This document shows, in pieces, positions 6,402 through 49,645 of a stretch of DNA of 64,000 bases. The first letter of the stretch is position 1, and every line of letters begins with the position of its first letter. The stretch comes from Pseudomonadota bacterium (GTDB taxonomy: Bacteria; Pseudomonadota; Alphaproteobacteria; SP197): NCBI GenBank assembly GCA_039028155.1, contig JBCCIS010000003.1, positions 25,904 through 89,903 on the forward strand, written 5' to 3'. The notes below the pieces were generated by a model, which was not told the origin of the DNA, did no database searches, and worked only from the letters and a program-made list of their open reading frames with translations. Both the position numbers and the translations under genes were made by a program.

Positions 6402-6953
6402 ATGCCGTTACAGGAGCTGTTCTTTTCGTTTTCCGGTCGCATCAACCGCGCGACGTTTTGGACCCGCGCGATGCCGATCCTGTTCGTCTACAGCATGATC
6501 ACCAATACGGTCGCGGCCATCGAAATCTATGAGACCGGCCAATACGGCGTCATCTCCATTGTCTTAAGCCTGATCGGGATTTGGCCGGCCCTGGCCGTAA
6601 ACGTGAAACGACTGCACGATCGCGGGCGTTCCGGATGGTTCATTCTGATCGGTCTGATCCCCATTGTCGGTCCGATCTGGCTGCTCATCGAAACCTGGTT
6701 CCTGGGGAGCAAACCCGAAGCCAACCGCTTCGGCGAGGTGCCGACGAACCATGCATCGAGCGGCGCCGTGATCGGCGCCATCGCCACCATCGTCATCGCC
6801 ATGATCGTCGCCGTCGCGGTCGTACTCTCGGTTGTCGACATCAGCGTACCCGCCGACATGGCCTACCCCGAAGCAACCAGCGGCGAGTCGTCGGTCGAAC
6901 CTGAATCCGTGATGCCGGACGATTCGGAGGCCGCCACGTCAACGTCGAACTAG
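6402..6953 (+). CDS. DUF805 (YhaH-like) inner-membrane protein
   Basis: N-terminal FSFSGRINRATFW and KRLHDRGRSGWFILIGLIPIVGPIWLLI motifs typical of DUF805. Multi-TM with an acidic C-terminal tail. Confidence 0.65.
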   Translation: MPLQELFFSFSGRINRATFWTRAMPILFVYSMITNTVAAIEIYETGQYGVISIVLSLIGIWPALAVNVKRLHDRGRSGWFILIGLIPIVGPIWLLIETWFLGSKPEANRFGEVPTNHASSGAVIGAIATIVIAMIVAVAVVLSVVDISVPADMAYPEATSGESSVEPESVMPDDSEAATSTSN

Positions 6954-10239: not shown

Positions 10240-11841
10240 TTACTCGGCAAGATCGACGCCATAGAACGGATGACCGCCAAACGGATCGATTCTGTAGTCG
10301 ATCACGTCGTTCGTCATCGGCATGAAGACGACCGAATGGGCGATCGTCACCCACGGCGCCTCCTCCTTGAAGATCACCTGGGCTTCTTCATAGAGGCGTG
10401 TCCGCTCGTCCGGATCACTGCTCTGCTTGGCCTGCTGCAGAAGGCCGTCGAACGGCTCGTGACACCAGCGCGCACGGTTCGCGCCATCCGCGGCGGCGCA
10501 ACCCAGCAGGACATGCAGGAAGTTGTCGGGATCGCCGTTGTCGCCGGTCCAACCCAACAGCAGCATTTGATGCTCACCGTTCCGCGATCGGTCCAGATAC
10601 TCGCCCCACTCAAAGGTCACGATCTCGGCCTCGATGCCGATTTCGGCGAGGTCGGCCTGCATCAGCTCGGCCATGCGTTCGGCGTTCGGGTTATAGGGCC
10701 GCTGCACCGGCATCGCCCACAGGTCCGTCGAGAAGCCGTCGGGATAGCCGGCTTCGGCCAGCAATGCCTTGGCCTTTTCGGGATCGTACTCGTAGTCGGT
10801 GATGGCGTCGTTATAGGACCAGATTGTCGGCGGGATCGGGTTCTTGGCTTTCACGCCGGCACCCAGATAGACGGCTTCGATGATCGCGTCGCGATCGATC
10901 GCCATGTTGATGGCCTGGCGCACGCGCACATCGGTGAACGGATCCTTCTCCGTGTTCATGGCCAGATAGCCGACGTTCAGGCCTTCCTGCTGCATCACGT
11001 TGATGTCTGGATCGGCCATCATGGCTTCCAGATCAGCCGGGTTGGGATACGGCATGATGTGGCATTCGCCGGCCTGCAGCTTGTTGTAGCGCTGGGTCGG
11101 ATCGATCGTGATCAGGAAGACCAGCCGGTCGATCGGGGCGCGCCCGCGCCAATAGTCGTCAAAGGAGCGATAGTCGATGCGCTCGTCCTTGACGTAGCGC
11201 ACCATCTGGAAGGGGTCGGTGCCGATCGGCTCCAGGTCGAACGTATCGGGCGTGCCGGCCGCCATCATGGCATCGGCATACTCCGCCGACATGATGGACG
11301 CGAAATCCATGCCCAGATTGGCGATCATCGGCGCTTCGGGCTGGTTCAAGGTCATGACCACCGTCATGTCGTCGGTCTTCTCGACCGACTTCAGAAGGTT
11401 CGGCATGTCCATGCCCTGGAAGTACTCGTAACTGCCGCCGGACACGTTGTGATAGGGGTGCTCGGGATCGAGCTGACGGTTGAAGCTGAACAACACGTCG
11501 TCGGCGTTGAAATCGCGGGTCGGCGTGAAGTTGTCGCTTGACTGCCACTTCACACCAGGCCGCAGGTGAAACGTGTAGACAAGGCCGTCGTCGGAGACTT
11601 CCCAGCTTTCCGCCAGGGCCGGTTCAATGTTTGTCGAACCGCGCTCGAACTCGACCAGTCTGTTGAAGACATTGCGTGAGGATGCGTCAAACGTCGTACC
11701 GGCTGTATAGAGCGAAGGATTGAAACCTTCCGGGCTCGCTTCCGAACAGTAGACAAGTGTCTTTTCTGCTTGGGCTTCGCCCGCGGCAATACCAAAGGTC
11801 GCCAGCGCCGCGACCAGCGCTGTCAGCAACTTGTTGTTCAT
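10240..11841 (-). CDS. ABC transporter substrate-binding protein, family 5 (DppA/OppA-like), with signal peptide
   Basis: Start at the internal ATG preceded by GGAGGTAAC. Signal peptide [25 protein letters not shown]. Family-5 binding-protein fold over about 530 aa. Confidence 0.8.
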
Positions 11842-11973
11842 GTTACCTCCGTAAGACGAATGACAGGGGCGAGTAAATCGCGCGTCATTCAACCACCCTT
11901 ATCTGCCCCTAAAGAGTGATTAAACCGTACCTGAATCGGGGTCAACGGATGTATGGCTCGTGTAAACTTGCCA

Positions 11974-11989
11974 TCACATAGAAATGTGA
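11974..11989. promoter_or_regulatory. 6-4-6 palindrome TCACAT-AGAA-ATGTGA in the divergent SBP/GST intergenic region
   Basis: Perfect inverted repeat seen directly, in a locally AT-richer stretch. It has the same ATAGAAAT core as a second palindrome at ~12182. Confidence 0.35.
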
Positions 11990-12181
11990 CGCGAAACCAA
12001 CAAACGATATACAAGTTTAAAATTCGGCAAACGCGTGATGCACAACCCAGCATGTTGCAACGCATCATGGGACAAAACTTTAGAATGGCATTAACAAACG
12101 CCATCAATCTGGCGGCATGTTGCCGGAACGCACGCGCCACATCGACCATCCGTCGTGCTCGGGGGTCGATTCAAGATCGGG

Positions 12182-12197
12182 CGCGATAGAAATCGCG
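12182..12197. promoter_or_regulatory. 6-4-6 palindrome CGCGAT-AGAA-ATCGCG (second copy of the ATAGAAAT-core operator-like site)
   Basis: Perfect inverted repeat about 200 bp from the first one, in the same intergenic region. Confidence 0.35.
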
Positions 12198-12393
12198 ACG
12201 AAATCATGGATAAGAAGGCCGAATGTCAGGCGGGAAGCCCTGAAGACGAAGTATTCCGCAAGGAACTCTTGAAGTTATCCAAGGCGACGACCTTGGTGCG
12301 CTGGCGCAGACGGGAAAAATGTCGGGGCGTCTTGCTCGAAGACTGCGCACAGACGTAAACACGGGCCCATAGGCGCCATCGATCGAGGGAGAC

Positions 12394-25652: not shown

Positions 25653-26414
25653 ATGCCGAACAGAAAAGACCAGATCCGCGCGCTGTTGAAGAGTATCGAG
25701 ACCGGCGACCCCGGGCCTATCGCCGTCGTCAATCAGGAACGCTACATCCAGCATAACCCGCAGACCCATAAGGGCAGCGAGGGTCTGGAGGTGCTCTTCG
25801 AGCGCCTGTCGAAGACCTCGCCGCGCGTCAACGTCGTGCGCGCGTTCGAAGACGGCGACTTCGTTTTCGGCCACACCGAGTATGACTTCTCACGCTCGAA
25901 CATCGGTTTCGAAGTGTTCCGGTTCGACGGTGACCGCGTCGTCGAGCACTGGGACAACATCCAACAGCGCCAGGGCCCGAACCCGTCGGGCCGCACCATG
26001 GTCGACGGCGTGATTGAGTCGACTGACCGTGAGTTGACGGAGACGAACCGCGAGATCGCGCGCGCCTTTGTCGATGAGGTTCTCGTGCATCGCCAGTTGG
26101 ACACGCTGGAGAGCTACGTCAACGACGGATGTCTCATCCAACACGACCCGCACCTTGCCGACGGCGCCGAGGCGCTTCGTGCTGCACTTGAAACACGGTC
26201 GGAGACGGGTTTCGCGATCCAGTACGACCGCATCCATCGCGTCCTTGCCGAAGGCAGTTTTGTCCTGACCGTCAGCGAAGGATTCCGGAACGGCGTGCAC
26301 ACCTCATTCTACAATCTCGTGCGCATCGAAGACGGCAAAGTCGTCGAACACTGGAACACCGTCGAGGCGATCCCGCCACGCAGCGCGTGGAAGAACGACA
26401 ACGGCAAGTTCTGA
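25653..26414 (+). CDS. Tandem SnoaL-like/NTF2-like domain protein (predicted ester cyclase-like)
   Basis: Two repeated approximately 120-aa units, each ending in (V)VEHW(D/N), consistent with SnoaL-like polyketide cyclase folds. Confidence 0.55.
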   Translation: MPNRKDQIRALLKSIETGDPGPIAVVNQERYIQHNPQTHKGSEGLEVLFERLSKTSPRVNVVRAFEDGDFVFGHTEYDFSRSNIGFEVFRFDGDRVVEHWDNIQQRQGPNPSGRTMVDGVIESTDRELTETNREIARAFVDEVLVHRQLDTLESYVNDGCLIQHDPHLADGAEALRAALETRSETGFAIQYDRIHRVLAEGSFVLTVSEGFRNGVHTSFYNLVRIEDGKVVEHWNTVEAIPPRSAWKNDNGKF

Positions 26415-32335: not shown

Positions 32336-33066
32336 TGGCCGGCCAACGCCTGACGCTCGCCCTCATCGCGCTGCTGCTGGCCGCGCAGGTGGCGCTCGCG
32401 ACCCAGACCATCGCGCGCCACGACATCGACGACACGCTCGCCATGCCGCCACCACGCGAGGTCGCGAGCGTGCTTGCGCTGGGCGACGACCAGTTCTTTT
32501 TCCGTCATGGCGTCTTGGAGATCACCCATGCCGGCGTCGCCGACGGCGACACCATCTATCTGCGCGATTTCGACTATGACGTGCTGGTCGCCTGGCTGTT
32601 CCTGCTCGACGAGCTCGACCCGCGTTCCGGCGCCGTGCCCTTCTTGGCGGCCTACTGGTATGGCCGCACGCCAGTGGTCGCCGATGCCGCCTTGATCGTC
32701 GACTATCTGGAAGCCCGCGCGCTCGCCGACCCGGAAACCGGTTGGCGGTGGCTGGTCGAGGCGGTTTATCTGGCGCGCTACCGGCTTAACGATCTTGACC
32801 GCGCGCTGGCGCTCGCCGAGCTCGCGGCCGACGGCAAAATCGAGAATGCGCCGTTCTACGTGCAGCATCTGCCGGCCTTCATCCAGCTCGATCTCGGCGA
32901 ACGCGACGCCGCGCTCGTGCTGCTGCGCGCGCTCTTGGAAGAGAACCCAGATCTGCCGGAAGACGAGCTCAATCTGTTATTCTTCATGATCGACCGGATC
33001 GAACGCGACGGGGGTGACGGCATGACCGAGCCCGGCGCCGCATCCGGCGAAACGGACGGAACATGA
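32336..33066 (+). CDS. Secreted all-helical (TPR-like) hypothetical protein
   Basis: ATG immediately after the upstream stop. Signal peptide MAGQRLTLALIALLLAAQVALA. The track merges it into a 370-aa read-through ORF. Confidence 0.6.
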
Positions 33067-34163
33067 ACGACATTACACTCTCGCTCTCGCAGATCCTGCA
33101 GCTCGTCGGCGTGGTGCAATGCGTTTACGTCATCGCGCTGACGCTGGTCCGCACCGACGATTACCGTTTCGCCGCCCTGCCGGTCATGCTGTTCGCCGCG
33201 ATCGCCGTCGGTTTCGGCGTCCAGCTATTGATGACCTTGACGGAGATCGGCGAAAGCCCGTTCTTGAACGGCGTCTATCTGTTCGTAGAAACGGCGGTGC
33301 CGCCCTTGATGTACCTGATGGTCATCGAGTTGGCGAAGCGGCGCATTCCCGCCTCGCCCCATTGGCTGATCCTGGGCCTGCCGCTGCTGGCGGTGCCGGC
33401 GATCAATGTCGCCGTCCAGGCCGAGACCATCTGCCTGGGCGCCGATGGCAGCTTCTGCGTCGAGCCCTACCCGATGTTCTCGCTGTTCCGGGTTATCGCC
33501 GGCGTCGCCATTCTGCTGTTGCTGGTCGCGGTGATCTCGCGCGATCTCAAGTCGCTCCTGACCCAGAGCATGGGCAAGGAGAAGTACTGGATCGTCATCG
33601 CGTTGATCGGCGCCATCATCTCGTTGCTGGCGGTGAACCTGTTGAGCGCCTTCGAGGTGCTGAACGAGAGCGAGGCGGTGTTCGTCACGACCGTCCTGGA
33701 ACTGACGCTGATCTACCTGCTGATCTCATCCCTGTTCCGGGTCTATGGCGGCGCCGTCACGATCCGCACCAGCCGTGACAAGGGGCGTGACGGCGAGCGT
33801 GAACCGCTCAACGACGAGGAAATCAAGCTGGTCGAGCGCATCAACGAGCTGATGACCCTGGACAAGGTCTATCAGGAGGCCTCCTACAGCCGCAAAGATC
33901 TGGCCCAGGAGCTCGCCATCGCCGAACACCAGCTGTCGCGGATCATCAACACCGGCTTCGCCATGAGCTTCAGCGACCTCATCAACAACCATCGGGTCGA
34001 GGAAGCGAAGTACCTGCTGCGCACCACCGACGAGCCGGTCAGCTCGATCGCCTTTGATGTCGGCTTCAACAGCCTGGCCTCGTTCAACCGCGTGTTTCGC
34101 AAGGTGACCGATCAGACGCCGACCGCGTTTCGCCAGAACGGCGGCGAGGCGCCGAGCCAATAG
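33063..34163 (+). CDS. Membrane-integrated AraC-family transcriptional regulator (N-terminal polytopic membrane domain + C-terminal AraC HTH)
   Basis: About 230 aa with six or seven hydrophobic helices, then a classic AraC HTH (YSRKDLAQELAIAEHQLSRIINTGFAMSFSDLINNHRVEEAKYLLRTTDEPVSSIAFDVGFNSLASFNRVFRK). ATGA overlap with the upstream gene. Confidence 0.75.
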   Translation: MNDITLSLSQILQLVGVVQCVYVIALTLVRTDDYRFAALPVMLFAAIAVGFGVQLLMTLTEIGESPFLNGVYLFVETAVPPLMYLMVIELAKRRIPASPHWLILGLPLLAVPAINVAVQAETICLGADGSFCVEPYPMFSLFRVIAGVAILLLLVAVISRDLKSLLTQSMGKEKYWIVIALIGAIISLLAVNLLSAFEVLNESEAVFVTTVLELTLIYLLISSLFRVYGGAVTIRTSRDKGRDGEREPLNDEEIKLVERINELMTLDKVYQEASYSRKDLAQELAIAEHQLSRIINTGFAMSFSDLINNHRVEEAKYLLRTTDEPVSSIAFDVGFNSLASFNRVFRKVTDQTPTAFRQNGGEAPSQ

Positions 34164-34522
34164 CCCGTTTCGGCTGTCGGACCCCGCCGCCGGCCTACCC
34201 TGTCGATCGTAGTAGAATCTTCGGTTCTTCCCCTAAGGTCTTGATTCAATATCGAATCTTGTGCGCTGCAGCATGAGTTTTCAGCGACTGGCAGGGTCAG
34301 TTTAGAGCTAGAACTCCTCAATCTGTAAATCTGACACCGCACAACGCCAGATAGCGAAGACCCCCCAAAGGATTAGCCCTAAAGAGTAGGTTCGAGGAGA
34401 ACGAGAGCGTTGCGTCTGTGCCGTTTTGGGACAGTCGCAAGTCGAGCAAGGCGCGATCGACTTCGTATCACAGTGAAACAGCCGGCAAGCCGGCACAGAG
34501 ACCAACGCGAGGATCCGAAACC

Positions 34523-35185
34523 ATGCAGGGTAACGTGGGTAACGACAGACACAGCTCCGAACGCGGCTTTACGCTGGTCGAGCTTTCCATCGTTCTTGTC
34601 ATCATCGGGCTTTTGATCGGCGCCGTCCTGAAGGGCCAGGAGTTGATCGAAAGCGCGCGGCTGAAGTCGCTGATGACGCAGATGAACAGCTACAAGACGG
34701 CGACCCAGATCTTCAAGGATCGTTATGGCTCGCTGCCCGGCGATTTCGACGAGGCGACGACCGTGCTGAACGCCTCGGCCAACGGCGACGGCGACGGCCT
34801 GATCGACGGCAACGGTGGCAACGGCGAAGGCCCGCTGTTTTTCGAGCATTTGGTTCGCGCTGAGCTGATCTCCGGTGTTTCGGTCAACGATCCCATCCCC
34901 GACAGCAAAGCCGGCAACGGCGAAGTCCAGGCCGACAACGACGACGTCAACCAGGGCTCGCAGGACACCAACTTCTTCCGCGCCGGCGGCCTGAACGGCG
35001 TCGCCAGCACCCGCGATATCCTGAGCGGCGCCCAGGCGGGCGAGCTGGACAACAATTTCGACGACGGCAGCGGTATCACGGGCGATATCCAGTCCGAGGG
35101 CGGCAATGACTGCCGCACCAATGCCGGCGTCCACAACTTCACCGATGGCGACGTCGCCTGCGTCTTCTTCGTGAAAATCGAATAG
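34523..35185 (+). CDS. Type IV prepilin / pseudopilin (class III signal peptide)
   Basis: MQGNVGNDRHSSERG|FTLVELSIVLVIIGLLIGAV is a prepilin peptidase cleavage motif (G/FTLxE) followed by a hydrophobic N-methylation helix. Gly/Asp-rich C-terminus with a Cys pair. RBS GAGGAT. Confidence 0.8.
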   Translation: MQGNVGNDRHSSERGFTLVELSIVLVIIGLLIGAVLKGQELIESARLKSLMTQMNSYKTATQIFKDRYGSLPGDFDEATTVLNASANGDGDGLIDGNGGNGEGPLFFEHLVRAELISGVSVNDPIPDSKAGNGEVQADNDDVNQGSQDTNFFRAGGLNGVASTRDILSGAQAGELDNNFDDGSGITGDIQSEGGNDCRTNAGVHNFTDGDVACVFFVKIE

Positions 35186-39875: not shown

Positions 39876-40616
39876 CTAGTCCTGTGCCTGCAAGGCTCTT
39901 TCCAGATCGCGCAATTGGTCCTGTTGCGCCGGGCTCAAGCTCAGATCCTCCGGCGTCGCCAGTGCTTCGACATCGATCTCGCCGCCGCCGTCCGCGATGG
40001 TCCCACCCTGCTCTTCGGGCGGCCTCAAAATCGCAAGCGCGGAGACGTCGACCACGTCGTCGGTGTCGGCGAGATAGATCTGATGGGGCCGCAGTGTAAA
40101 GACGCGGCGGTTCTGCGGCTGCGACGCATCCGGCATCCAGACCAGGTCGACATAGTCCGGCCCGATCGCGTTGACGCGCAGGTCCGCCGGCATGGTGTCG
40201 GGTGTCACGTGCTCGCTGTTCAGCCACAACGACCAGCGCGTCGGACTGAAGTAGAGCAAGGCATCCAGGCGAAAGTCGCGCAGGGCGACCGGTGCCACGG
40301 TCACTGTCTCGCCGGTCTCCTGCACATCGGCGAGGCCGTCGGCGCCGGTGACGGCCAGGCGCACGGCGGCATCGATCAAGGCCGCCTCGTGTTCCGTCAG
40401 CATCAGGTTGTCGCGGGCGATGATGCGTAGGACGTCGTCGTCGCTCAGGCTGCTGTCGACCTGGAGCTGCTGGACCGCGGGCAGGTCGATGGCGGGTGTA
40501 GTCGCTTCATCGCCGGAGTCCTCGCCGTCTTGTGCCAGCCCCCAGCCCGCGATAACCACGGCCGACAACACGACGGCGCCGAGCCATGTGCCAGTCTTTC
40601 GAACAATTCGGCCCAT
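39876..40616 (-). CDS. Periplasmic pilus-assembly-associated hypothetical protein (PilP/MshK-position)
   Basis: ATGA-coupled to the upstream PilO-like gene. N-terminal signal-anchor. No recognisable motifs; assignment is positional. Confidence 0.45.
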   Translation of the reverse strand: MGRIVRKTGTWLGAVVLSAVVIAGWGLAQDGEDSGDEATTPAIDLPAVQQLQVDSSLSDDDVLRIIARDNLMLTEHEAALIDAAVRLAVTGADGLADVQETGETVTVAPVALRDFRLDALLYFSPTRWSLWLNSEHVTPDTMPADLRVNAIGPDYVDLVWMPDASQPQNRRVFTLRPHQIYLADTDDVVDVSALAILRPPEEQGGTIADGGGEIDVEALATPEDLSLSPAQQDQLRDLERALQAQD

Positions 40617-41308
40617 CACGACTCGTCCCAATCGTCGTCGTCCCAGTCGTCGTCATCATCGTCGTTACCGGCGACAACAACCGCGTTGTTCCAGTTGATC
40701 GATAGCGTTCCCTCGAACACGGCAACCCGTTCGCCGGCGACGATTTGATCCAGCAGCGCGTCGGAGATCTCACTGATGCGCCGGACGTTCATCGCATCGA
40801 CCTGGACCTGACCGTCCAGCCGGCTGATGAACTCGGCGATGAACCCCAGGATCTGCGTGTCCGTCAGGCTGCGGACCTCCAGGCCGATCTCCGTCCGGGT
40901 CAGGAGAAGCTCGGTACCGTCTTCACCTTTAATCTCCTCGACCATCTCGGGCTGGAAGTCATAGCCCAAAAACACCAGGCCGTACTTCGGGCCCAGTTCC
41001 TCAAGCAGTTGCGCGGCGCGCAGGCGGCTTTGCTCGGTCAGAAAGCCGTTGGCGACAATCGTCTCATAGCGCTCACCCTGGGCCTGCACGACGGCGATCT
41101 CGTCTTTCAGTTCGCCGATGCGTTCGTCCAGCTCTTCGATTTCCCATTCCAGGCTGCCAATCTCGATCAGCTTCTGCTGGTTCTGAGCCTCGATCTCGCT
41201 GGAATAGTGCACGACCGCCCCGCCAACGACGATCAGCACGATCACCGGGATGATCAGCCGGCGCGCGATCGCCTTCAGCACCTGCGGCGTCAGATAGTTC
41301 AGGTTCAT
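40616..41308 (-). CDS. PilO/MshJ-like pilus assembly protein (TM + coiled coil) with poly-Asp/Trp C-terminal tail
   Basis: N-terminal TM (IIPVIVLIVVGGAVV). Coiled-coil region. C-terminus ...AGNDDDDDDWDDDDWDES. ATGA overlap with the upstream PilM/N gene. Confidence 0.55.
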   Translation of the reverse strand: MNLNYLTPQVLKAIARRLIIPVIVLIVVGGAVVHYSSEIEAQNQQKLIEIGSLEWEIEELDERIGELKDEIAVVQAQGERYETIVANGFLTEQSRLRAAQLLEELGPKYGLVFLGYDFQPEMVEEIKGEDGTELLLTRTEIGLEVRSLTDTQILGFIAEFISRLDGQVQVDAMNVRRISEISDALLDQIVAGERVAVFEGTLSINWNNAVVVAGNDDDDDDWDDDDWDES

Positions 41309-42873
41309 GACGCCGCCTCGCTCACCTCGATCTCAGGCAGGATAATGCTGATGACGGCGGCGAAGCCGGTGTCGCCGTCCTCCAGCGGATCGCCCAATGC
41401 GACCTGACCGATCAAGTTCTGGTTCGGCAGGATATCGACCGGCGGATCGGTCACGCGCACGTCGAAACCCGGCATGATTTCGGCCATGCGCTCGGCCAGC
41501 GCGTCGGTCACGACAACGGCGTCTTCCATGTCGCCTATGGTGCTGTCCAAATGCACCGTTACCGCCAAGCGGATATCGCGCAGGCCGGCCTCTTCCTCGA
41601 TGACCCAATCGACTTCGTGCACCACGATGTCCGGGCCCAAGGTCGGCCCGATCAAGGCCAGGAACGGCAGGGGTGACGGCGCATGGGTCGACAGCCGGTC
41701 ATAGGTAGCAACGGTGTCGGCGACTTCGGGTGCGGAAACCAGGAAGCTCGCGGCGAGCTTGCCGGTCGCTTCCAGTTCGGCTTCGCGCTCTGTCGCCACC
41801 AACGCGATGTCGCGATGGGCCCGGTCGACTTCCTGGGATTCGACATAGGCCTCGGAAAGACCGAACGTCGCGTAGCCGACGATCAGCGCGATGAAGACGT
41901 AGGCCGCGCGCGTCGTCAGCGCACCCGCGCGTTTTTCGTAAAGCTCCTCGGGCAGCAGCGACAGAACCGGACGTCGTTTCTGTGCGAACACCGCGCCGTG
42001 CAGCACCTCGCCATAGCTATCATCGGGCTCGGCGACGCCCGCAAGCCTCAGCCTTTCGGCCGCATCATGCGGTGTCACCATGCGCAGATGCGACGGCGAC
42101 ATGCCGAGATTAAGCAACTCCTGGCCGATCTCCGGCGTTCCCGCGACGATAATGTCCAGGCCCTGATCGTCGCTATAGGACATGCGCCTCAGATAGCCCA
42201 TGCTCAGCTTGTATTCGCGCTCGATGGTCTGGGCGACTTCGCTGGCGCTGGCATCCGCCGGCGCGCTTTGCGTCAGGCGCGTGAAGACGAACTCGTCGCC
42301 GCGAATGACCACCTGACGGAAACCGCCGGTGCGGTGGCGCGTCACCAGCATGACCCATTGGGGCCGGCTGCCGCGCCGATGAAACAGGTTGGAGAGATTG
42401 CGCGCCAGCGACACCGCTTCCAGTGGCAACAGCGAGAACGGCTTGACCGGGTTGGGCGCCTGATTGATCCAGTCGATCCAGCCGTCAAGCGCCGGTGAGG
42501 CAGGCAAACCGGCCAACAGATAGCGGCGGTCGCGCCGCTCGCCATCCTGGCGGCCCAGGTAGTGCGCGGCCTTTATCTTCGCTTCCGAAAACGCCGTCGC
42601 CAGCCTGCGCTGCAACATGCCGGCGGCGTCGAACATCGAAACCGGCGGAATCGATTCCTTGGCAAACGACTGCTCGAGGACGTCGATCAGCGGGTACACC
42701 GGCGTCGACGGCGAGTCCTTCAGCATCTCCAGCATCTGCGCGCTGTCGCCGGGATCGCTGGTCGGCGCGAAACAGCGGTCGCGCACCCGCGCTCCTGTCA
42801 CGCGCAGCAGCACCGCGCCCTCATCGCCGATGACCAGGACGAACTTGTTCGACGTGCCGAACGAGAAGTTCAT
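41305..42873 (-). CDS. PilM-PilN fusion-type pilus assembly protein (MshI-like)
   Basis: N-terminal actin-like PilM start (FSFGTSNKFVLVIGDEGAVLL). A central TM (AAYVFIALIVGYATFGL) followed by a PilN-like periplasmic region. 522 aa, comparable to MshI. Confidence 0.6.
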   Translation of the reverse strand: MNFSFGTSNKFVLVIGDEGAVLLRVTGARVRDRCFAPTSDPGDSAQMLEMLKDSPSTPVYPLIDVLEQSFAKESIPPVSMFDAAGMLQRRLATAFSEAKIKAAHYLGRQDGERRDRRYLLAGLPASPALDGWIDWINQAPNPVKPFSLLPLEAVSLARNLSNLFHRRGSRPQWVMLVTRHRTGGFRQVVIRGDEFVFTRLTQSAPADASASEVAQTIEREYKLSMGYLRRMSYSDDQGLDIIVAGTPEIGQELLNLGMSPSHLRMVTPHDAAERLRLAGVAEPDDSYGEVLHGAVFAQKRRPVLSLLPEELYEKRAGALTTRAAYVFIALIVGYATFGLSEAYVESQEVDRAHRDIALVATEREAELEATGKLAASFLVSAPEVADTVATYDRLSTHAPSPLPFLALIGPTLGPDIVVHEVDWVIEEEAGLRDIRLAVTVHLDSTIGDMEDAVVVTDALAERMAEIMPGFDVRVTDPPVDILPNQNLIGQVALGDPLEDGDTGFAAVISIILPEIEVSEAAS

Positions 42874-42935: not shown

Positions 42936-44147
42936 CTAGAAGCCCATATTGCCGAAGTTGTCGTAGATCGGGCCCAGCACGCCCAGCACGACCCACAAGA
43001 CGATACCGCCGATGGCGATGGTCAGCGCCGGCTCGATCGAGCTGATCATCGACGTCACGGCATTATCGACCTCGCGGTCATAGAAGTAACCGATGTTCTC
43101 CAGCGCTTCATTCAGCTTGCCGGACTCTTCGCCAATCTTGAACATGCGCACCACCAGATGCGGAAACTGGCCGGTCGCCTCCAGGGCCGCCGACAGCGAC
43201 GTACCGCTCTGCACGTTTTGGCGCGCCATGCTGAGCGATTCCGCCAGCATCTTGTTGGCGACGACACGGCGTCCGGTATCGATGCAGTTCAGAACGTCGA
43301 TGCCGCTTTGGAATGTCAGGGCGAAGAAGTGGGCGAAGCGCGCCAGCGCCAGCTTCTTCAAGACCGGGCCGACGCCTGGAATACGGAACTTCATGGCGTC
43401 GAACCAATAGGAGAAACCCTCGAAGAAACGCAGCAGAAAGGTGACGGTCAAGAAACCGATGACCGGCACGGCAAGCACGACCCACCAGTAGGAAGCGAAG
43501 AAGTTCGACGTCGCGATCAACGCGCGGGTCATGAACGGCAGCTCGCCGGACGTCGAGATCAGGAATTCCGACACCTGCGGTACGACGAACACCATCATCA
43601 TGAAGATGACGCCGAAAACCATGATCATCATGAACATGGGATAACGCGTCGCCTTCTTGATCTTCGACGTCATCTCGCCTTGCCACTTCAGGTGGTCGGC
43701 CAGATGGCCGAACGCGTTGGAGAGATTGCCGCTCTGTTCACCGGCGGCGACAACACCGGTGAAGACCGCGTTGAAGACCTTCGGGTGCACCTCCAGCGCG
43801 CGGCTCAGATACATGCCGTCGCTGACGTTCCGAACGACTTCCGACAGGATATCTTGCAGGCGCCCGGAATCGGTCGCCTCGCGCACATCGTTCAGCGCAT
43901 CCAGCAACGGCACGCCGGCGCGGTCCAGTTGCTGCAGATGAATGCACATCTGCACCATGTCGTCGTTGGTGATTTTCTTCTGCAGAAAGGTCGAGACCTT
44001 GCTCTGGCGCACCTCGCCATGGCGGATCAGGTCCAGACCCATGACGCGAAGGTTCGACTCAAGGTCCATGACGTTGACCGCGTTCAACGTGCCCGTGACG
44101 TTGCGGCCGCTCTGGTTCATGGCGCGGTACTTGTAGAGCGGCATCAA
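42936..44147 (-). CDS. Type IV pilus/T2SS inner-membrane platform protein (PilC/GspF/MshG family)
   Basis: Two T2SSF repeats and a conserved C-terminus (...IEPALTIAIGGIVLWVVLGVLGPIYD...). 4-bp overlap with the upstream ATPase gene. Confidence 0.85.
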   Translation of the reverse strand: MMPLYKYRAMNQSGRNVTGTLNAVNVMDLESNLRVMGLDLIRHGEVRQSKVSTFLQKKITNDDMVQMCIHLQQLDRAGVPLLDALNDVREATDSGRLQDILSEVVRNVSDGMYLSRALEVHPKVFNAVFTGVVAAGEQSGNLSNAFGHLADHLKWQGEMTSKIKKATRYPMFMMIMVFGVIFMMMVFVVPQVSEFLISTSGELPFMTRALIATSNFFASYWWVVLAVPVIGFLTVTFLLRFFEGFSYWFDAMKFRIPGVGPVLKKLALARFAHFFALTFQSGIDVLNCIDTGRRVVANKMLAESLSMARQNVQSGTSLSAALEATGQFPHLVVRMFKIGEESGKLNEALENIGYFYDREVDNAVTSMISSIEPALTIAIGGIVLWVVLGVLGPIYDNFGNMGF

Positions 44148-46210
44148 AACAGCCTGTCGGTCATGTTGATGTGGCGCACCAGCTCGGCGACGCTGGTCTC
44201 GCCCGCCAGCACCTTCGCGATGCCGTCATCGCCCATGGTCTTGAAGCCGTGCTTGCGCGCGCACGACAGAAGCTCGACGCGCGAGGCCTCACGGGCGACC
44301 AGTTCATCCATCTCATCGTTGAAGCCCAGAATCTCGACCGCCGCCACGCGGCCGCGGTATCCCCGGTTGTCGCAGGCCTCGCAACCGACGGGATGCCAGA
44401 TCTCCGGCTTTTCGGCGGGGTCGATGCCCAGCACCTGACATTCGTCCTCGGTAGCCGGGCGCGCCTCCTTGCAGGCGTCACACAGGCGGCGCACCAGGCG
44501 CTGGGCCAGGATGCCGATGACGTGGCCGGCCAGCATGGACGGGTTGAGTTTCAGATCGACCAGACGGGGAATGGCGCCCAGCGCATCGTTGGTGTGCAGC
44601 GTCGTATAGACCTGATGGCCGGTCATGGCCGCGCGCAACGCCATGGTCGCGGTGTCTTCGTCGCGCACCTCGCCGATGAAGACGATATCGGGGTCCTGGC
44701 GCAGAATAGAGCGCACGCCCTCGCCGAACGACATGCCGGCGGCCTCGCGGATATGCGACTGGCGGATCAGCGGCAGCTCGTACTCGACCGGGTCTTCAAG
44801 GGTCATGATATTGACCTCGACCGAGTTGATCTTCTCCAGCATGGCGTAAAGCGTCGTCGTCTTACCCGAACCGGTCGGGCCGGTGATGACGATGATGCCT
44901 TCCGGCCGCTTCAAGAGCGTGCCCATGACCCGCGTGTTGTGCTGGCTGAAGCCGAGCTCGTCCAACGGCTTCAACGACTTGGATTTGTCGAGCACGCGGA
45001 TAACGATGTTCTCGCCGTGCACGGTCGGGTGCGACGCCACACGGAAGTCAACCTCCCGGCCGCCGACATGGATGCTCATGCGCCCGTCCTGCGGGTTGCG
45101 CGTATCGGCGATGTTCATGCCGGAGATGATCTTGATGCGCACCGAGATCGCCGGCCAATAGTCCTTATGGAAGGTGCGCACCTGGGTCAGGATGCCATCG
45201 ACGCGATAGCGCAGACGCACGAACACGCCTTCCGGTTCGAAATGCATGTCGGACGCGCCGACCTTCACCGAGTCCATGATGATCGCGTTGACCAGGCGCA
45301 CCGTCGGGTTGACGTAGCCGTCCTCGGTGGTCAGCGCCTGAATGTCGACAACGCCGGTCTCGATCTCGCGCAGAATGCCGTCGATCGACATTTCGTAGCC
45401 GTAGAGCCGGTCGATCGCCTCGGTCAGGTCCTGTTCGGATGTCAGCAGCGGCAGGATTTCGATATCGCGCGGGAAACAGCGGCGCAGCTGGTCAAGCGCC
45501 AGGACGTCATAGGGATCCGACATCGCCGCCTGCAGCACATCGTCGACCATGGCGACGGGCAGGACCGCGTACTTCGACGCAATGTCCTTAGGCACCTGTT
45601 TGATCAGGTCGGCGTCGAACATGGCGGTCGCGGGGTCGAACTGTTCCAGCCCGGTCGATTCCGCCAACACTTCCGACAGCGCCGACTGGGTGATGAAGCC
45701 CAGATCGACAAATACTTCGCCCAGGAGCTTGTCGCCGCGCTTGCGCTCGCGCATGGCAACGTCGAGTTGGTCCTGCGAGATCAGGCCGAGTTCGCGCAGC
45801 CGCTCGCCCAGGCGCATCTGCTTGACCTGCCCGGTCTGGGGCGCGCCCGCCGGACGCGTCGGCGCGTCGGCCACGCCCCTATCCGCCAACGCCGCCAGAT
45901 CGGGCATCGGCGGCATGGCCGGCGTCTCCGGCGCCGCCGGTGCCGCCGACGCTGTCGTGGCATCCTCGATCGTCTCGGCTGCCGTGTCGCTGGCAGGAGC
46001 GGCCGCACCGGTATCGTCGACGCGAATTTCGAAGCTGGGTTTGGGTGCTGAGACCGGTGCCGCGTCCTCATCCAATGCTGGTTCGGACCGTGCCGGTGGC
46101 GGCGGTGGTGGCGGGGCGTCCGCGCGAACTTGGGCGCCGGCCCCCTTGGCGAGGTCCGCTGCCATGGTCAACGGTTTGCCCGACCTGCCGGGCTTGCCGA
46201 ATACCGCCAT
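44144..46210 (-). CDS. GspE/PilB/MshE-family assembly ATPase with MshEN-type N-terminal domain and a ~150-aa Pro/Ala-rich N-terminal extension
   Basis: Walker A GPTGSGKTTT. Asp and His boxes. C-terminal tetracysteine CDAC...CEAC. An N-terminal T2SSE_N/MshEN-like segment (LGEVFVDLGFITQSALSEVL...). Residues 1-150 are low-complexity (PPPPPPPA...). Strong RBS GGTGAGGA before the ATG. Confidence 0.85.
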   Translation of the reverse strand: MAVFGKPGRSGKPLTMAADLAKGAGAQVRADAPPPPPPPARSEPALDEDAAPVSAPKPSFEIRVDDTGAAAPASDTAAETIEDATTASAAPAAPETPAMPPMPDLAALADRGVADAPTRPAGAPQTGQVKQMRLGERLRELGLISQDQLDVAMRERKRGDKLLGEVFVDLGFITQSALSEVLAESTGLEQFDPATAMFDADLIKQVPKDIASKYAVLPVAMVDDVLQAAMSDPYDVLALDQLRRCFPRDIEILPLLTSEQDLTEAIDRLYGYEMSIDGILREIETGVVDIQALTTEDGYVNPTVRLVNAIIMDSVKVGASDMHFEPEGVFVRLRYRVDGILTQVRTFHKDYWPAISVRIKIISGMNIADTRNPQDGRMSIHVGGREVDFRVASHPTVHGENIVIRVLDKSKSLKPLDELGFSQHNTRVMGTLLKRPEGIIVITGPTGSGKTTTLYAMLEKINSVEVNIMTLEDPVEYELPLIRQSHIREAAGMSFGEGVRSILRQDPDIVFIGEVRDEDTATMALRAAMTGHQVYTTLHTNDALGAIPRLVDLKLNPSMLAGHVIGILAQRLVRRLCDACKEARPATEDECQVLGIDPAEKPEIWHPVGCEACDNRGYRGRVAAVEILGFNDEMDELVAREASRVELLSCARKHGFKTMGDDGIAKVLAGETSVAELVRHINMTDRLF

Positions 46211-46398
46211 TCCTCACCTCTAGCGCCTGATGGATGCTGTCGGCCGACCCCTCGGCACAAGACAACAGAACGTCACCGGTCTCCCGTGGCGTTTTCAGGC
46301 GTCCCCAACTGCTTTCTTCCCGCGTATTTTAGTACACAAGCTGTTAGATTCATATTCAGATAATGCTCAACCCGTCCTATAAGTCGGATTAATGTGAA

Positions 46399-46480
46399 CT
46401 GTGTTTATGACGCACAATCAAGCCGGTCTGTGGCGACCGTCACAACTATATCCGTCGTTCTCTTGATTTGATAAACACAG
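46399..46480. promoter_or_regulatory. 10-bp inverted repeat CTGTGTTTAT ... ATAAACACAG (62-bp spacing) in the AT-rich divergent promoter region between the mshE-like operon and pilin gene 2
   Basis: Seen directly in the 290-bp intergenic region, which is markedly AT-richer than the flanks. Confidence 0.35.
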
Positions 46481-46503
46481 TGGATTAGCGGCACTGGCCA
46501 AAT

Positions 46504-47259
46504 ATGACGTCTGATTCAACACAGAATCCGTTCCAATCGACCGAAAAGGGCTTCACCCTGATCGAAATGGCGATTGTGATCGCCATTATCGGCGTTTTGG
46601 TCGCCATGTTGGCGCCGATGCTGGGCAATATCGCGGAAAACAACCGAACGGAACTGACCGTTCAGCGCATGGACCAAATCGAGAACGCCATGGTCGTTTT
46701 CCTGCGCCAGAACGGCCGCCTGCCATGTCCGGCCGCCCCCAACGGCGCGCCCCTAGGCGATGAACGCGCCAGCTGCAACACCGGCAACAACAACGACGGT
46801 ATCGTGCCGTTCCGCAGTCTTGGGCTGGCCGAGGCCGACGTGCGCGACGGCTACGGCAACTATTACACCTATCATGTCGCCGAGGACTACGCCGACAGCA
46901 GTTTGCCCACGGTGATGACCGATCCCGGCGGCTTCTGTTTCGTCGCCTCCGGCGAGCCGAACGGCGATCTGGATATCGAAGACATCAACGGCACCAACGT
47001 GACCGGCCAGGACATCGCCTTCACGCTGATCAGCCATGGCAAGAACGGTTATGGCCGATACGACCCGCCGGGCAACGGCAAGGTCAACGCCAATGGCGGC
47101 GGCACCTTCGAGGACGAGAACAACGATTCCGACGCCGACTTCGTCGACGGCATCCGTCTAACCGACGATGCGACGGACGGCCCGCTCGATGACGCGGTCA
47201 TCTGGAAAACGCGCGACGGGCTGGCCGGCCAGGCCATTGAGTTCGGCTGTTCGCCGTAG
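46504..47259 (+). CDS. Type IV prepilin (class III signal; large 251-aa pilin, candidate major subunit)
   Basis: MTSDSTQNPFQSTEKG|FTLIEMAIVIAIIGVLVAMLAP is a leader plus N-methyl-Phe helix. C-terminal Cys pair (C...GCSP). Confidence 0.8.
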   Translation: MTSDSTQNPFQSTEKGFTLIEMAIVIAIIGVLVAMLAPMLGNIAENNRTELTVQRMDQIENAMVVFLRQNGRLPCPAAPNGAPLGDERASCNTGNNNDGIVPFRSLGLAEADVRDGYGNYYTYHVAEDYADSSLPTVMTDPGGFCFVASGEPNGDLDIEDINGTNVTGQDIAFTLISHGKNGYGRYDPPGNGKVNANGGGTFEDENNDSDADFVDGIRLTDDATDGPLDDAVIWKTRDGLAGQAIEFGCSP

Positions 47260-47379
47260 CCATAACTAGGCTTACTGAACCCACAACTTGCCAGTGCTCG
47301 AACTCAACCATAGGGTGTTGGGCAAGAGTTGCGGAGTCTACCCTTCGCTACGTTGAAGACAGCATTACGATATCATCTC

Positions 47380-47892
47380 ATGGAAACACCAGAGTTCAAC
47401 CTAAAGAACCGTGTCGCGCCGTTAGGGCGTTGGTATGAACACTTGGTCTATTTCTTTATCGCGAGTTTTTTCTTTGCTGTTTGGACATACTGGGTCGCCG
47501 GAAAATACCATCCATACTATGTACTAGATACTTTGGGGCATGCCGTTTGGTCGCTTCTAGCTTTCTATTTATCCAATAAAATCTTACTAATCGTTTATCG
47601 ACACTTAAACTTTGCAATCGCTTTCTGTGCATACTACATTATCGCGCTTATCATATTTGTTACGATAAGCGTATCAATTATAGCGATGAGGTCTCTGGAA
47701 GGAAACGAAGCGCTAAAATTTGACGGAATATGGATCTATCACTATGGGTTTATTACTTGGGAAGGTTTCATATGGGAGGTCAAGTACTTCTCAAGAAACT
47801 TCATTCCGCTGTTTTTGGCAAACCTAGCTTCAATCTTACTGCTACGATTAATCTACAAACTTCTAAGTTGCCGATTTGTACGCGGTGGGTAG
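47380..47892 (+). CDS. Hypothetical polytopic membrane protein encoded in an AT-rich (~42% GC) island
   Basis: The ORF (TTG at 47329, first ATG at 47380) encodes four or five hydrophobic helices. It is rich in Phe, Tyr, Ile and Lys, with AT-rich codons unlike the host genome. Confidence 0.5.
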   Translation: METPEFNLKNRVAPLGRWYEHLVYFFIASFFFAVWTYWVAGKYHPYYVLDTLGHAVWSLLAFYLSNKILLIVYRHLNFAIAFCAYYIIALIIFVTISVSIIAMRSLEGNEALKFDGIWIYHYGFITWEGFIWEVKYFSRNFIPLFLANLASILLLRLIYKLLSCRFVRGG

Positions 47893-47962
47893 TGGCTTAA
47901 GCACTCTCCGACGCCAGTGCATCAACATGTACAGACGACCTCTTTCAACCCGATCTTCTTCG

Positions 47963-48013
47963 AACTCGTGACGACCTAGCCGGCCTGGCGATCGAGTTCG
48001 GCTGTTCGCCCTA
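47963..48013 (+). repeat. Imperfect direct repeat of the last ~17 codons of pilin gene 2 (relic 3' end), bounding the AT-rich insert
   Basis: CGTGACGACCTAGCCGGCCTGGCGATCGAGTTCGGCTGTTCGCCCTAG matches ACGCGCGACGGGCTGGCCGGCCAGGCCATTGAGTTCGGCTGTTCGCCGTAG at 47208-47259 (about 38/45 identities over the central alignable 45 nt). The two translate as RDDLAGLAIEFGCSP* and RDGLAGQAIEFGCSP*. Confidence 0.6.
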
Positions 48014-48026
48014 GGGTAGGCCGGCT

Positions 48027-49439
48027 CTAGACCGCGTTCGTCCCTTCGTTCCAGCTTTGCAGCTTGCGGTAGACGGTCGACGGACTGATCTCCAGCAGCG
48101 CGGCGGCGCGTGGCACGTTGCCCTCGCTTAGACGCAGAGCTGCTTCGATCGCCTCGCGTTCGACCTCGTGCAGCGGACGGATATCGACGTCCGTCAAATC
48201 ACCAGGTGCGGCATCGGCCCTGCGTTTGCGCAAGGGATCGTTGGCCGGCTGCGGCAGCCCGGCCGAGCCGTCCAGTGGAGGCGGCAGCATCTCGCGCGTC
48301 ACGACCTCGCCGGTGTTCAAGACTACCACGTTACGGATGATGTTCTGCAATTCCCTGACATTGCCCGGCCATGAATAGGCACGGAAGAGATCGCGCACGC
48401 TGGCGTCCAACCGCGCGAACGGTTTGCTTTCCTGGCGCGCGAACTCACGCAGGAAGTTTTCGGCAATGTCGATGACGTCGTCGTCACGCCGGTTGAGCGG
48501 CGGCAGGTGAATCGGAATGACATGCAGGCGGTAATAGAGGTCGGCGCGGAACCGGCCGCTCTCGACCTCCTTCAAGGGATTGCGGTTGGTCGCGCAGACA
48601 AAACGCACATCGACCCGCTCCGACCGGCTTGAGCCGACCTGCTGGAACGTTCCGGTTTGCACGAAACGCAACAGCTTGGCCTGCAGCGCCGGCGCCATGT
48701 CGCAGATCTCGTCCAGGAACAGCGTGCCGCCATCGGTCAAGGTCGCCGCGCCGTCGCGATTGGAAACCGCGCCCGTAAACGCGCCTTTCACATGGCCGAA
48801 CAGCTCGCTCTCCAGAAGGTCGCGCGGTATTGCCGCGCAATTGAGCGCCATGAACGGCCCGTCGGAGCGCTCACTTAGATGGTGAATCGCCTCGGCGCAC
48901 AGCTCCTTGCCGGTGCCGCTCTCACCGGTAATGAAGATCGATGCCTGACTGGGCGCGGCGCTTTGAATGGTCGCGTAGACGCTTTGCATCTCCATCGACG
49001 AACCGATGAAGCCGGCGAAGGAGCTGTGTCGTGTCTCGCTCGTCATGCCGTCGACCAGACGCTGCAGTTCGCGCCGCTCCAGCGCGTTGCGCAACGTGAC
49101 GATCAGGCGTTCTTGGCTGAACGGTTTGACCAGGAAATCGTACGCGCCGTCGCGCATCGCCTCGACCGCCGCGCTGACCGAGCCGTGGGCGGTGATGATG
49201 ACGACGGGGCACGGCAACTGGCGTTGCTTGATCCAGCGCAAGATTTCCAAGCCATCGATGTCGGGCAGTCTGAGATCGAGAAGGACCGCGTCCGGCGCCT
49301 GTTTGTCGATTGACGAAAACGCCGCCTCGCCGGTTTCGACGTGTTCAACGGAGACGGGCTCGAAGCGCAAGTACTCCTTGTAGACACGCGCCAAGGGTGG
49401 CGTGTCTTCGACCAGAAGCACTGTCTGCTGACGGTTCAT
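48027..49439 (-). CDS. Sigma-54-dependent response regulator (NtrC/PilR family: REC + AAA+ + Fis HTH)
   Basis: Receiver domain ([14 protein letters not shown]...[16 protein letters not shown]). GESGTGKE Walker A. The GAFTGA sigma54-contact motif. C-terminal HTH. RBS GGAGG before the ATG at 49439. Confidence 0.9.
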
Positions 49440-49645
49440 AGCCCTCCTCACGAACCGTAGTCCCGCTGCGTCTTAAACTAGAGCAGATTGGACATGTGTT
49501 CAATCTTTTGGACCCCGCGTAGGACGCCCATCGACTCTACGTATCATCAGTAATCATGGATTTGGCGACGAACATACAAATCGTGGCAACTCCGCCGGAG
49601 GACGTCGTCCAACAGCAGTTTTCCTTGTCGTCTCAACGCTTTATC

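Follow-up and report, generated by a model that had tools for sequence, protein, structure and literature searches.

Introduction

Cis-mobilizable elements (CIMEs) are decayed elements that are flanked by attachment (att) sites, lack recombination genes and often reside at the 3' ends of protein-coding genes (PMC7563491). They are the remnants of integrative and conjugative or integrative and mobilizable elements (ICEs and IMEs), with fda, rpsI and rpmG as streptococcal targets, and range from 130 bp to 13 kb in size, microCIMEs measuring 130-220 bp and classical CIMEs 1.2-13 kb (PMC7563491). Another point of comparison is offered by the pilin-accessory cassettes, in which a Rho-independent terminator lies between the pilin gene and the accessory gene; TfpY-like proteins are 235-245 amino acids long and combine three N-terminal transmembrane (TM) helices with a periplasmic mixed alpha/beta domain of two beta-sheets, and TfpO and TfpW are large glycosyltransferases (PMC11841053). 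The subject of the present study is a GC-poor islet located directly behind a pilin-like gene, here called pilin 2, in a stretch of 64,000 nucleotides (nt) from an uncultured alphaproteobacterium (GenBank assembly GCA_039028155.1, contig JBCCIS010000003.1, forward-strand positions 25,904 to 89,903). We refer to this stretch as the window, and coordinates given without a locus name are positions within it. The islet contains one open reading frame (ORF) for a membrane protein and is bracketed by two copies of the last 52 nt of the pilin gene. It is a lineage-specific insertion with target duplication, and it probably represents an integrase-less genomic islet that originated from single-crossover integration, site-specific or Campbell-type, in these 52 nt and persists as an att-flanked remnant.

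A GC-poor segment between two copies of a pilin tail

Pilin 2 (46504-47259, + strand, 251 amino acids) is recognized by Pfam N_methyl and NCBIfam prepilin-domain matches, carries the prepilin cleavage/methylation motif GFTLIEM and has an intact ORF. Its working 3' end, comprising 16 codons and the TAG stop (copy 1, 47208-47259, + strand), is repeated directly as a relic pilin 3' end further downstream (copy 2, 47963-48014, + strand); both copies were delimited by a repeat search and by site-by-site comparison with relatives. Each copy is 52 nt long, stop codon included, and 43 of the 52 positions (83%) are identical. The two copies have in common an exact core of 17 nt, GAGTTCGGCTGTTCGCC, which occurs twice in the window against 0.03 expected occurrences, with a BLAST E-value of 2.5e-7 for the repeat core. 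Translation of copy 1 yields TRDGLAGQAIEFGCSP and that of copy 2 TRDDLAGLAIEFGCSP, each followed by a stop, which in the relic lies at 48012-48014. The duplication of about 50 bp that had been proposed in the original prediction was therefore present on recount, with the relic ending at 48014 instead of 48013. No pilin reading frame enters the relic from upstream, and an in-frame stop is encountered 37 codons before the relic's own stop. Regarding similarity beyond the 52 nt, upstream of copy 1, a local alignment was not significant (232 of 2000 shuffles) and an anchored alignment was marginal (181 of 5000 shuffles).

The island segment between the two copies (47260-47962) measures 703 nt, in agreement with the earlier estimate of roughly 700 bp of low-GC DNA, and the insertion reaches 755 nt when the relic tail is included. 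Its GC content is 43.1%, or 44.4% with the relic, and falls to 40.5% in the ORF, compared with 62.8% for the window. In sliding windows of 300 nt the island is the sole extended low-GC patch in the 64 kb. Its minimum of 0.37 lies approximately six standard deviations (SD) below the mean, which is 0.628 with an SD of 0.041. The only other stretch that drops under 50% GC in such windows is found at 11801-12200, where the minimum is 0.48.

The island opens immediately behind the pilin stop with an AT-rich non-coding leader of 120 nt (47260-47379, + strand). The leader precedes an orphan ORF (47380-47892, + strand) of 170 amino acids from its ATG, or 187 from a TTG at 47329, and a spacer (47893-47962, + strand) connects the ORF stop with the relic tail. 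The earlier description of an insert placed directly after the pilin stop consequently holds for the AT-rich DNA, and the ORF itself starts only after the leader. No convincing structured RNA was detected in the leader, and no Rfam family matched the island at E <= 1. A stop-free stretch of at least 187 codons did not appear in any of 2000 shuffled versions of the island. The codon usage of the ORF also departs from that of the host, with GC contents of 0.42, 0.34 and 0.46 at codon positions 1, 2 and 3, while third-position values (GC3) of five neighbouring genes lie between 0.76 and 0.85.

Close relatives without the insertion

The window was compared with three relatives, namely L001, an ENA metagenome locus, and L005 and L006, which belong to alphaproteobacterial metagenome-assembled genomes (MAGs), L006 being part of a complete chromosome of 5.5 Mb. 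Nucleotide identity to the window amounts to 88.3% for L001, 91.6% for L005 and 86.6% for L006. In all three, collinearity with the window extends over kilobases to the left and to the right, their alignments break exactly at the island, and none of them carries the insert; on the left, homology of the window to relatives stops at 47255-47258. On the right, the insertion site is flanked by the gene for a sigma-54-dependent response regulator, whose synteny is preserved in L001, L005, L006 and L007. In L001 (6760-6771) and L006 (6757-6768) just 12 nt intervene between the stops of pilin and regulator, an arrangement that corresponds to the gap between relic and regulator in the window. The native spacer of 12 nt that originally separated the two stops (48015-48026, not assigned to a strand) has thus been retained with equal length and position, and the 767 nt that now separate the pilin 2 stop from the regulator stop contain the island. 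L005 shows an unrelated pilin-regulator spacer of 88 nt (6757-6844) at this place; its similarity to the island or the pilin tail does not exceed that of shuffled sequences, and it is accordingly neither recognizable as an island scar nor as the carrier of a relic tail. The absence of the segment from three close relatives and its non-host codon usage bear out the original prediction in its core, an AT-rich foreign segment at the pilin 3' end with a functional and a relic tail.

The pilin-regulator junction is in itself variable among these four close relatives, with 12 nt in two of them, 88 nt in L005 and the 755-nt insertion in the window. In L001 and L006 the convergent transcripts must overlap, unless they terminate inside the neighbouring gene.

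Pilin 2 shares 92-95% of its amino acids with P0001 and with the pilins of L005 and L006, and hence represents the same orthologous allele. Because the insert-free relatives carry this same allele, the event was an addition with a target duplication of 52 nt and not the cassette replacement that had been suggested earlier; nothing was replaced. The identity ranking, ((window, L005), L001), L006, makes a single gain in the lineage of the window the simplest history, and judged from these sequences one gain would also be the parsimonious one. The reverse history, in which the island is ancestral and was precisely deleted in the relatives through recombination between the two tails, is extremely improbable. 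Direct repeats would indeed permit a precise excision that restores the 12-nt configuration, but since the window is closest to L005 at least two to three independent losses would be needed in place of one gain. Moreover, a composition so far from that of the host (GC3 of 0.46) argues for a recent arrival, and none of the relatives whose whole genomes were covered by the motif scan of species genomes described below contains the ORF.

The same junctions bear on the suspicion of an assembly artefact, that is, of a low-GC fragment chimerically joined into the contig. The close relatives are all MAGs or metagenome contigs, so that the window may be of this kind too, and the island is unmatched anywhere. 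Assemblers, on the other hand, join sequences at identical repeats and not at 52-mers that are only 83% identical, both junctions are in register, with an intact reading frame and the exact native spacer of 12 nt, and a fragment of 703 nt with a complete ORF, bracketed by copies of a gene tail, would be an atypical chimera. We consider an artefact very improbable.

Proposed integration by a single crossover and its alternatives

Foreign DNA that is flanked by repeats of the target's 3' end, next to a gene that has been rebuilt, points to a circular molecule and a single crossover. Integrative elements with gene 3' ends as their targets insert in this manner, and CIMEs are what is left once such elements have lost integrase and transfer genes. 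In the mechanism that we favour, and to which we attribute a reasonable probability, a circular DNA with a pilin-tail-like segment would have integrated via one reciprocal crossover within the last ~50 nt of the pilin gene. Such a crossover would necessarily flank the new DNA with direct repeats of the homologous segment and would thereby rebuild the pilin. It could have been catalysed by a site-specific recombinase of the att-type that acts at a gene 3' end, in which case the recombinase and the rest of the element would have been lost later or would have been provided in trans, and the result would be a remnant resembling a CIME. Another option would be homologous recombination of the Campbell type. 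The working tail would then consist of a native left and an incoming right part, and the relic of an incoming left and a native right part.

The site-by-site comparison of both copies with L001, L005 and L006 is consistent with such hybrids. All five changes that are unique to copy 2 are found in its left 27 nt (the chance of five out of five falling in the left half is ~0.04, with few sites to count), and its right 25 nt differ from the L005 pilin end solely in the stop codon. The left part of copy 1 resembles the relatives, and one unique change occurs in its right part. The location of all copy 2 changes on the left, together with the relative-like left part of copy 1, agrees with a crossover about midway along the repeat.

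Several observations count against a single crossover. No parent element, integrase or full-length relative of the island was encountered in the collections searched; a DNA scan with a degenerate motif of the ORF returned no match in 185,579 species genomes, the JGI metagenomes and IMG/VR, and a tblastn search of the ORF against plasmids and phages was equally negative. A second pilin tail is present in none of 44 loci from genomes, metagenomes and ENA that have a near-complete pilin 2 homologue and enough downstream sequence, and therefore there is no sign of a recurrent att site. Sequence identity of 83% over 52 nt is a poor substrate for RecA-type recombination. The hybrid pattern could instead reflect selection on the 3' untranslated region of the regulator gene, and the stop codon, TAG in both copies compared with TAA in L001, L005 and L006, would follow just as readily if native sequence had simply been duplicated. 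Finally, the divergence at four-fold sites between the window and L005 is 0.24-0.27, and on this basis neutral drift since the split from L005 could yield about the five relic-specific changes.

Some of these points are central to the main rival of single-crossover integration, in which a staggered or resected break in the pilin tail would have captured foreign DNA. Here, fill-in or template switching would have duplicated 52 nt of native sequence and the relic would subsequently have drifted, no homology-guided step being required. The TAG in both copies looks as if it came from one native source, the four-fold-site divergence could give roughly five relic-specific changes, and neither an integrase nor recurrent use of the site is seen, all of which speak for break capture. 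Yet the relic-specific changes are clustered, with five out of five in the left 27 nt, and three of the six differences that copy 1 and copy 2 show in their left half leave the amino acid of the old frame unchanged, unlike the outcome of random decay. Duplications of ~50 nt are also uncommon for bacterial insertion mechanisms, which counts against this explanation too. Altogether we regard break capture as rather unlikely.

Known types of mobile elements were looked for as well. Pfam shows no integrase or transposase domain in the island ORF, and searches with Pfam, NCBIfam and PHROGs revealed no recombination, mobilization or conjugation genes. The repeat search found no terminal inverted repeats that pair the island ends, and the 64-kb window contains no tRNA genes. 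No attC-like hairpin exists at either island end (z-scores of -0.8 to +1.7), and the single-stranded DNA folds of 47885-47975 are weaker than those of most shuffled sequences on both strands (z = +1.6 to +1.7). An insertion sequence, a miniature inverted-repeat transposable element or a transposon was consequently rejected, given the lack of terminal inverted repeats and of a transposase domain and a duplication of 52 nt where 2-14 bp would be expected. An integron gene cassette was rejected for want of an attC imperfect inverted repeat at the 3' end.

A more far-reaching interpretation extends the favoured mechanism to a living system. The islet could be a live member of an undescribed group of very small cassettes without a recombinase. 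These would target the conserved 3' tail of pilins of this family, bring along a surrogate tail that keeps the target functional, and deliver a co-transcribed, periplasm-facing protein with four TM segments that alters pilus behaviour. The effect on the pilus might be, for instance, the exclusion of pilus-dependent phages or a block of DNA uptake, and the divergent left half of the relic would be the footprint of the pilin allele of a previous host. We hold this idea to be quite improbable.

An orphan membrane protein as putative cargo

The ORF of the islet encodes a protein with four hydrophobic segments that span its whole length, which agrees with the lower and not with the upper end of the four to five TM segments given previously. 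A conserved aromatic loop, NEALKFDGIWIYHYGFITWEGFIWEV, lies between hydrophobic segments 3 and 4. The distribution of charged residues suggests an inner-membrane protein with four TM segments and both termini on the cytoplasmic side (N-in/C-in), in which the aromatic loop would be located in the periplasm. A single-sequence AlphaFold2 (AF2) model is all-helical and without strands, albeit of low confidence (mean predicted local distance difference test score, pLDDT, of 65), and a Foldseek search of this model against PDB and BFVD gave no match at E < 3.

Sequence searches did not assign the ORF to any family, and the remote-homology search that had been proposed for it retrieved one weak homologue. 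Pfam and NCBIfam produced no match, not even at E <= 10, nor did PHROGs or PADLOC, a word-indexed search of 5.8 billion protein clusters found no homologue, and a profile search of PDB sequences with the ORF gave nothing credible. Exhaustive comparison with 1.84 billion cluster representatives by HMMER returned a single weak match, P0121, with E = 1.6e-4, and a profile built from the ORF and P0121 recovered only P0121. The two proteins are collinear over their whole length with 24% identity, and both contain a G-x-x-H-P motif. Their similarity reaches 50% identity in an aromatic block of 26 residues, which reads NEALKFDGIWIYHYGFITWEGFIWEV in the ORF and NESLARYGVWMYRYGSLTWDGLVYEV in P0121. The gene of P0121 (L004, 4751-5185) stems from the same metagenome sample as L001 (ERZ25072999). 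It is likewise GC-poor, with ~0.50 against 0.63 in its surroundings, and is situated between a GFA-family and a lipocalin gene with no pilin nearby; no repeats flank it.

With respect to expression, no terminator was found between pilin and ORF on the + strand of 47250-47385 (fold z-score of -0.11), nor does this interval between the two genes hold a sigma-70-like promoter. Read-through into the ORF from the pilin promoter is probable for this reason, and on the basis of the sequence alone such expression appears plausible. We infer that the ORF is the cargo of the islet; a pilus-related role, though conceivable, is unlikely.

Such a role is the essence of a further alternative, in which the island would carry a gene for a pilin-specific accessory or modification factor, as do the cassettes located behind pilA in Pseudomonas, Dichelobacter and other bacteria, and the ORF product would act on this very pilin. 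The ORF is co-oriented with the pilin and follows it at a distance of 120 nt with no terminator between them, which makes co-transcription plausible; its predicted topology would expose the aromatic loop in the periplasm, where the globular domain of the pilin sits; and known accessory genes occupy this position (PMC11841053). Nevertheless, no family matches the ORF in sequence, and its architecture is unlike that of the TfpY-like proteins and of the large glycosyltransferases TfpO and TfpW. Relatives with a pilin that is 92-95% identical manage without it, its sole homologue P0121 is encoded amid unrelated genes (GFA and lipocalin), and the inter-gene terminator typical of such cassettes is absent. 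The resemblance to Pseudomonas-type accessory islands put forward in the original prediction thus fails on the ORF, which also differs from TfpX and TfpZ, on the terminator and on the lack of pilin linkage of P0121, and we consider this alternative distinctly unlikely.

The pilus-like gene cluster around the islet

According to Pfam and NCBIfam matches and the list of ORFs, the window carries a type-IV-pilus-like gene cluster. Pilin 2 is divergently oriented from a pilC-like gene (42936-44147, - strand) and a gene for a pilB/MshE-like ATPase (44144-46210, - strand), and its C-terminus is identical in amino acid sequence to its L005 and L006 counterparts. The sigma-54-dependent response regulator that is convergent with pilin 2 (48027-49451, - strand) was assigned as LuxO/NtrC-like by Pfam and NCBIfam, and is followed by the gene for an extracytoplasmic function (ECF) sigma factor. 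Despite the adjoining gene for a sigma-54 activator, no sigma-54 promoter (TGGCAC-N5-TTGCW-like, with up to 2 mismatches) could be detected upstream of pilin 2 (46251-46503). The GC content of this upstream region is also low (0.46-0.49), yet the region is conserved in L001, L005 and L006 and is therefore native. Downstream of the pilC-like gene, three genes for proteins of 522, 230 and 251 amino acids (39876-42873, - strand) lack a credible Pfam family. Their synteny is kept in L001 and L003, and they probably encode components of this pilus system that have yet to be characterised.

The pilin 2 family comprises proteins of 240-270 amino acids with conserved cysteines and a tail of the form ...EFGC.., and is widespread in proteobacterial MAGs (520 matches). 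One homologue, P0011 (436 amino acids, on an 86-kb ENA contig), appears to have the pilin globular region twice in tandem, each copy ending with a ...W.TRD...GC-like tail, and the normal N-terminal prepilin motif is absent from it. The window contains a second pilin gene, pilin 1 (34520-35185, + strand), with an N_methyl motif and the C-terminus ...ACVFFVKIE. L002 and L003 also have ORFs downstream of their pilin, which are homologues of pilin 1 and unrelated to the island ORF: in L002 (6922-7437, - strand) and L003 (7061-7717, - strand) the pilin 1 homologue is convergent with and immediately downstream of the pilin 2 homologue, and an AraC-type regulator follows. In the window, pilin 1 and pilin 2 are 12 kb apart and the AraC gene (33063-34163) lies upstream of pilin 1, and from these differing arrangements it follows that the cluster has been rearranged. 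The pilus locus of L002 (2654-5699) looks degraded, as its pilB-like gene was called in three fragments and ORFs for IS1595-family transposases are interspersed between pilB and the pilin.

Significance and comparison with known systems

If the islet has been interpreted correctly, it provides a clean natural example of foreign DNA that entered a tight junction and left both genes undamaged: a mere 12 nt separated the two convergent genes, one of which had its tail rebuilt by the insertion. A pilin promoter would probably also have come to control a membrane-protein gene that is essentially unique, only two members of its family having been retrieved from ~15 billion predicted proteins. Single CIMEs are under-detected, and the value of the finding lies mostly in the lead that it offers to those who catalogue integrase-less islets and to students of this poorly known pilus system of uncultured alphaproteobacteria. 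Evidence of att activity in the repeats, or of an effect of the ORF on the pilus, would add to its significance.

Of the systems compared, the pilin-accessory cassettes of P. aeruginosa, in which pilA is combined with tfpO, tfpW/tfpX, tfpY or tfpZ, and their FimB-like counterparts share with the islet a membrane-protein gene directly 3' of a pilin and in the same orientation, in a region that is variable and apparently horizontally acquired. They differ in that the pilin allele of the window did not travel with the ORF and in that no inter-gene terminator is present. Compared with the TfpY, TfpX, TfpZ and FimB-like proteins, the ORF is short (170 amino acids), with four hydrophobic segments and an all-helical model of low confidence (pLDDT 65); compared with TfpO and TfpW it lacks a glycosyltransferase or O-antigen-ligase-type domain and is again only 170 amino acids long. 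It shows no sequence similarity to any of these accessory proteins, and its only homologue is not linked to a pilin.

With integron cassettes the islet has in common that its one ORF, of ~0.7 kb, codes for an orphan protein, differs from the host in composition and seems to lack a promoter of its own. The islet departs from them through the lack of an attC hairpin and of an integron integrase or attI seen adjoining it, and through its flanks, which are 52-nt copies of the target end and not a GTT core site. The silent partial pilin copies (pilS) of Neisseria carry the conserved 3' region, and in their general layout they are similar to the islet as promoterless fragments of a pilin 3' end downstream of an expressed pilin. 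The islet, in turn, has one relic of 16 codons, which is all conserved tail with no variable region to donate, and the relic is more simply understood as an insertion scar than as a pilS-like copy.

The likeness to CIMEs extends furthest. In the islet, too, the direct repeats on either side of foreign cargo hold the 3' end of the targeted gene, whose ORF is preserved, integrase, relaxase and conjugation genes are missing, and the site is unoccupied in the close relatives L001, L005 and L006. At 0.75 kb the islet falls between the microCIMEs and the classical CIMEs in size. It differs from them in that no parent ICE or IME is known to use its site, in that its repeats are only 83% identical, and in that its host is an uncultured alphaproteobacterium and its target a pilin-like gene; its mobility is entirely a matter of inference. 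The islet is real and fairly ordinary in kind; it resembles known integrase-less remnants at gene 3' ends, with an unusual target and an essentially unique cargo.

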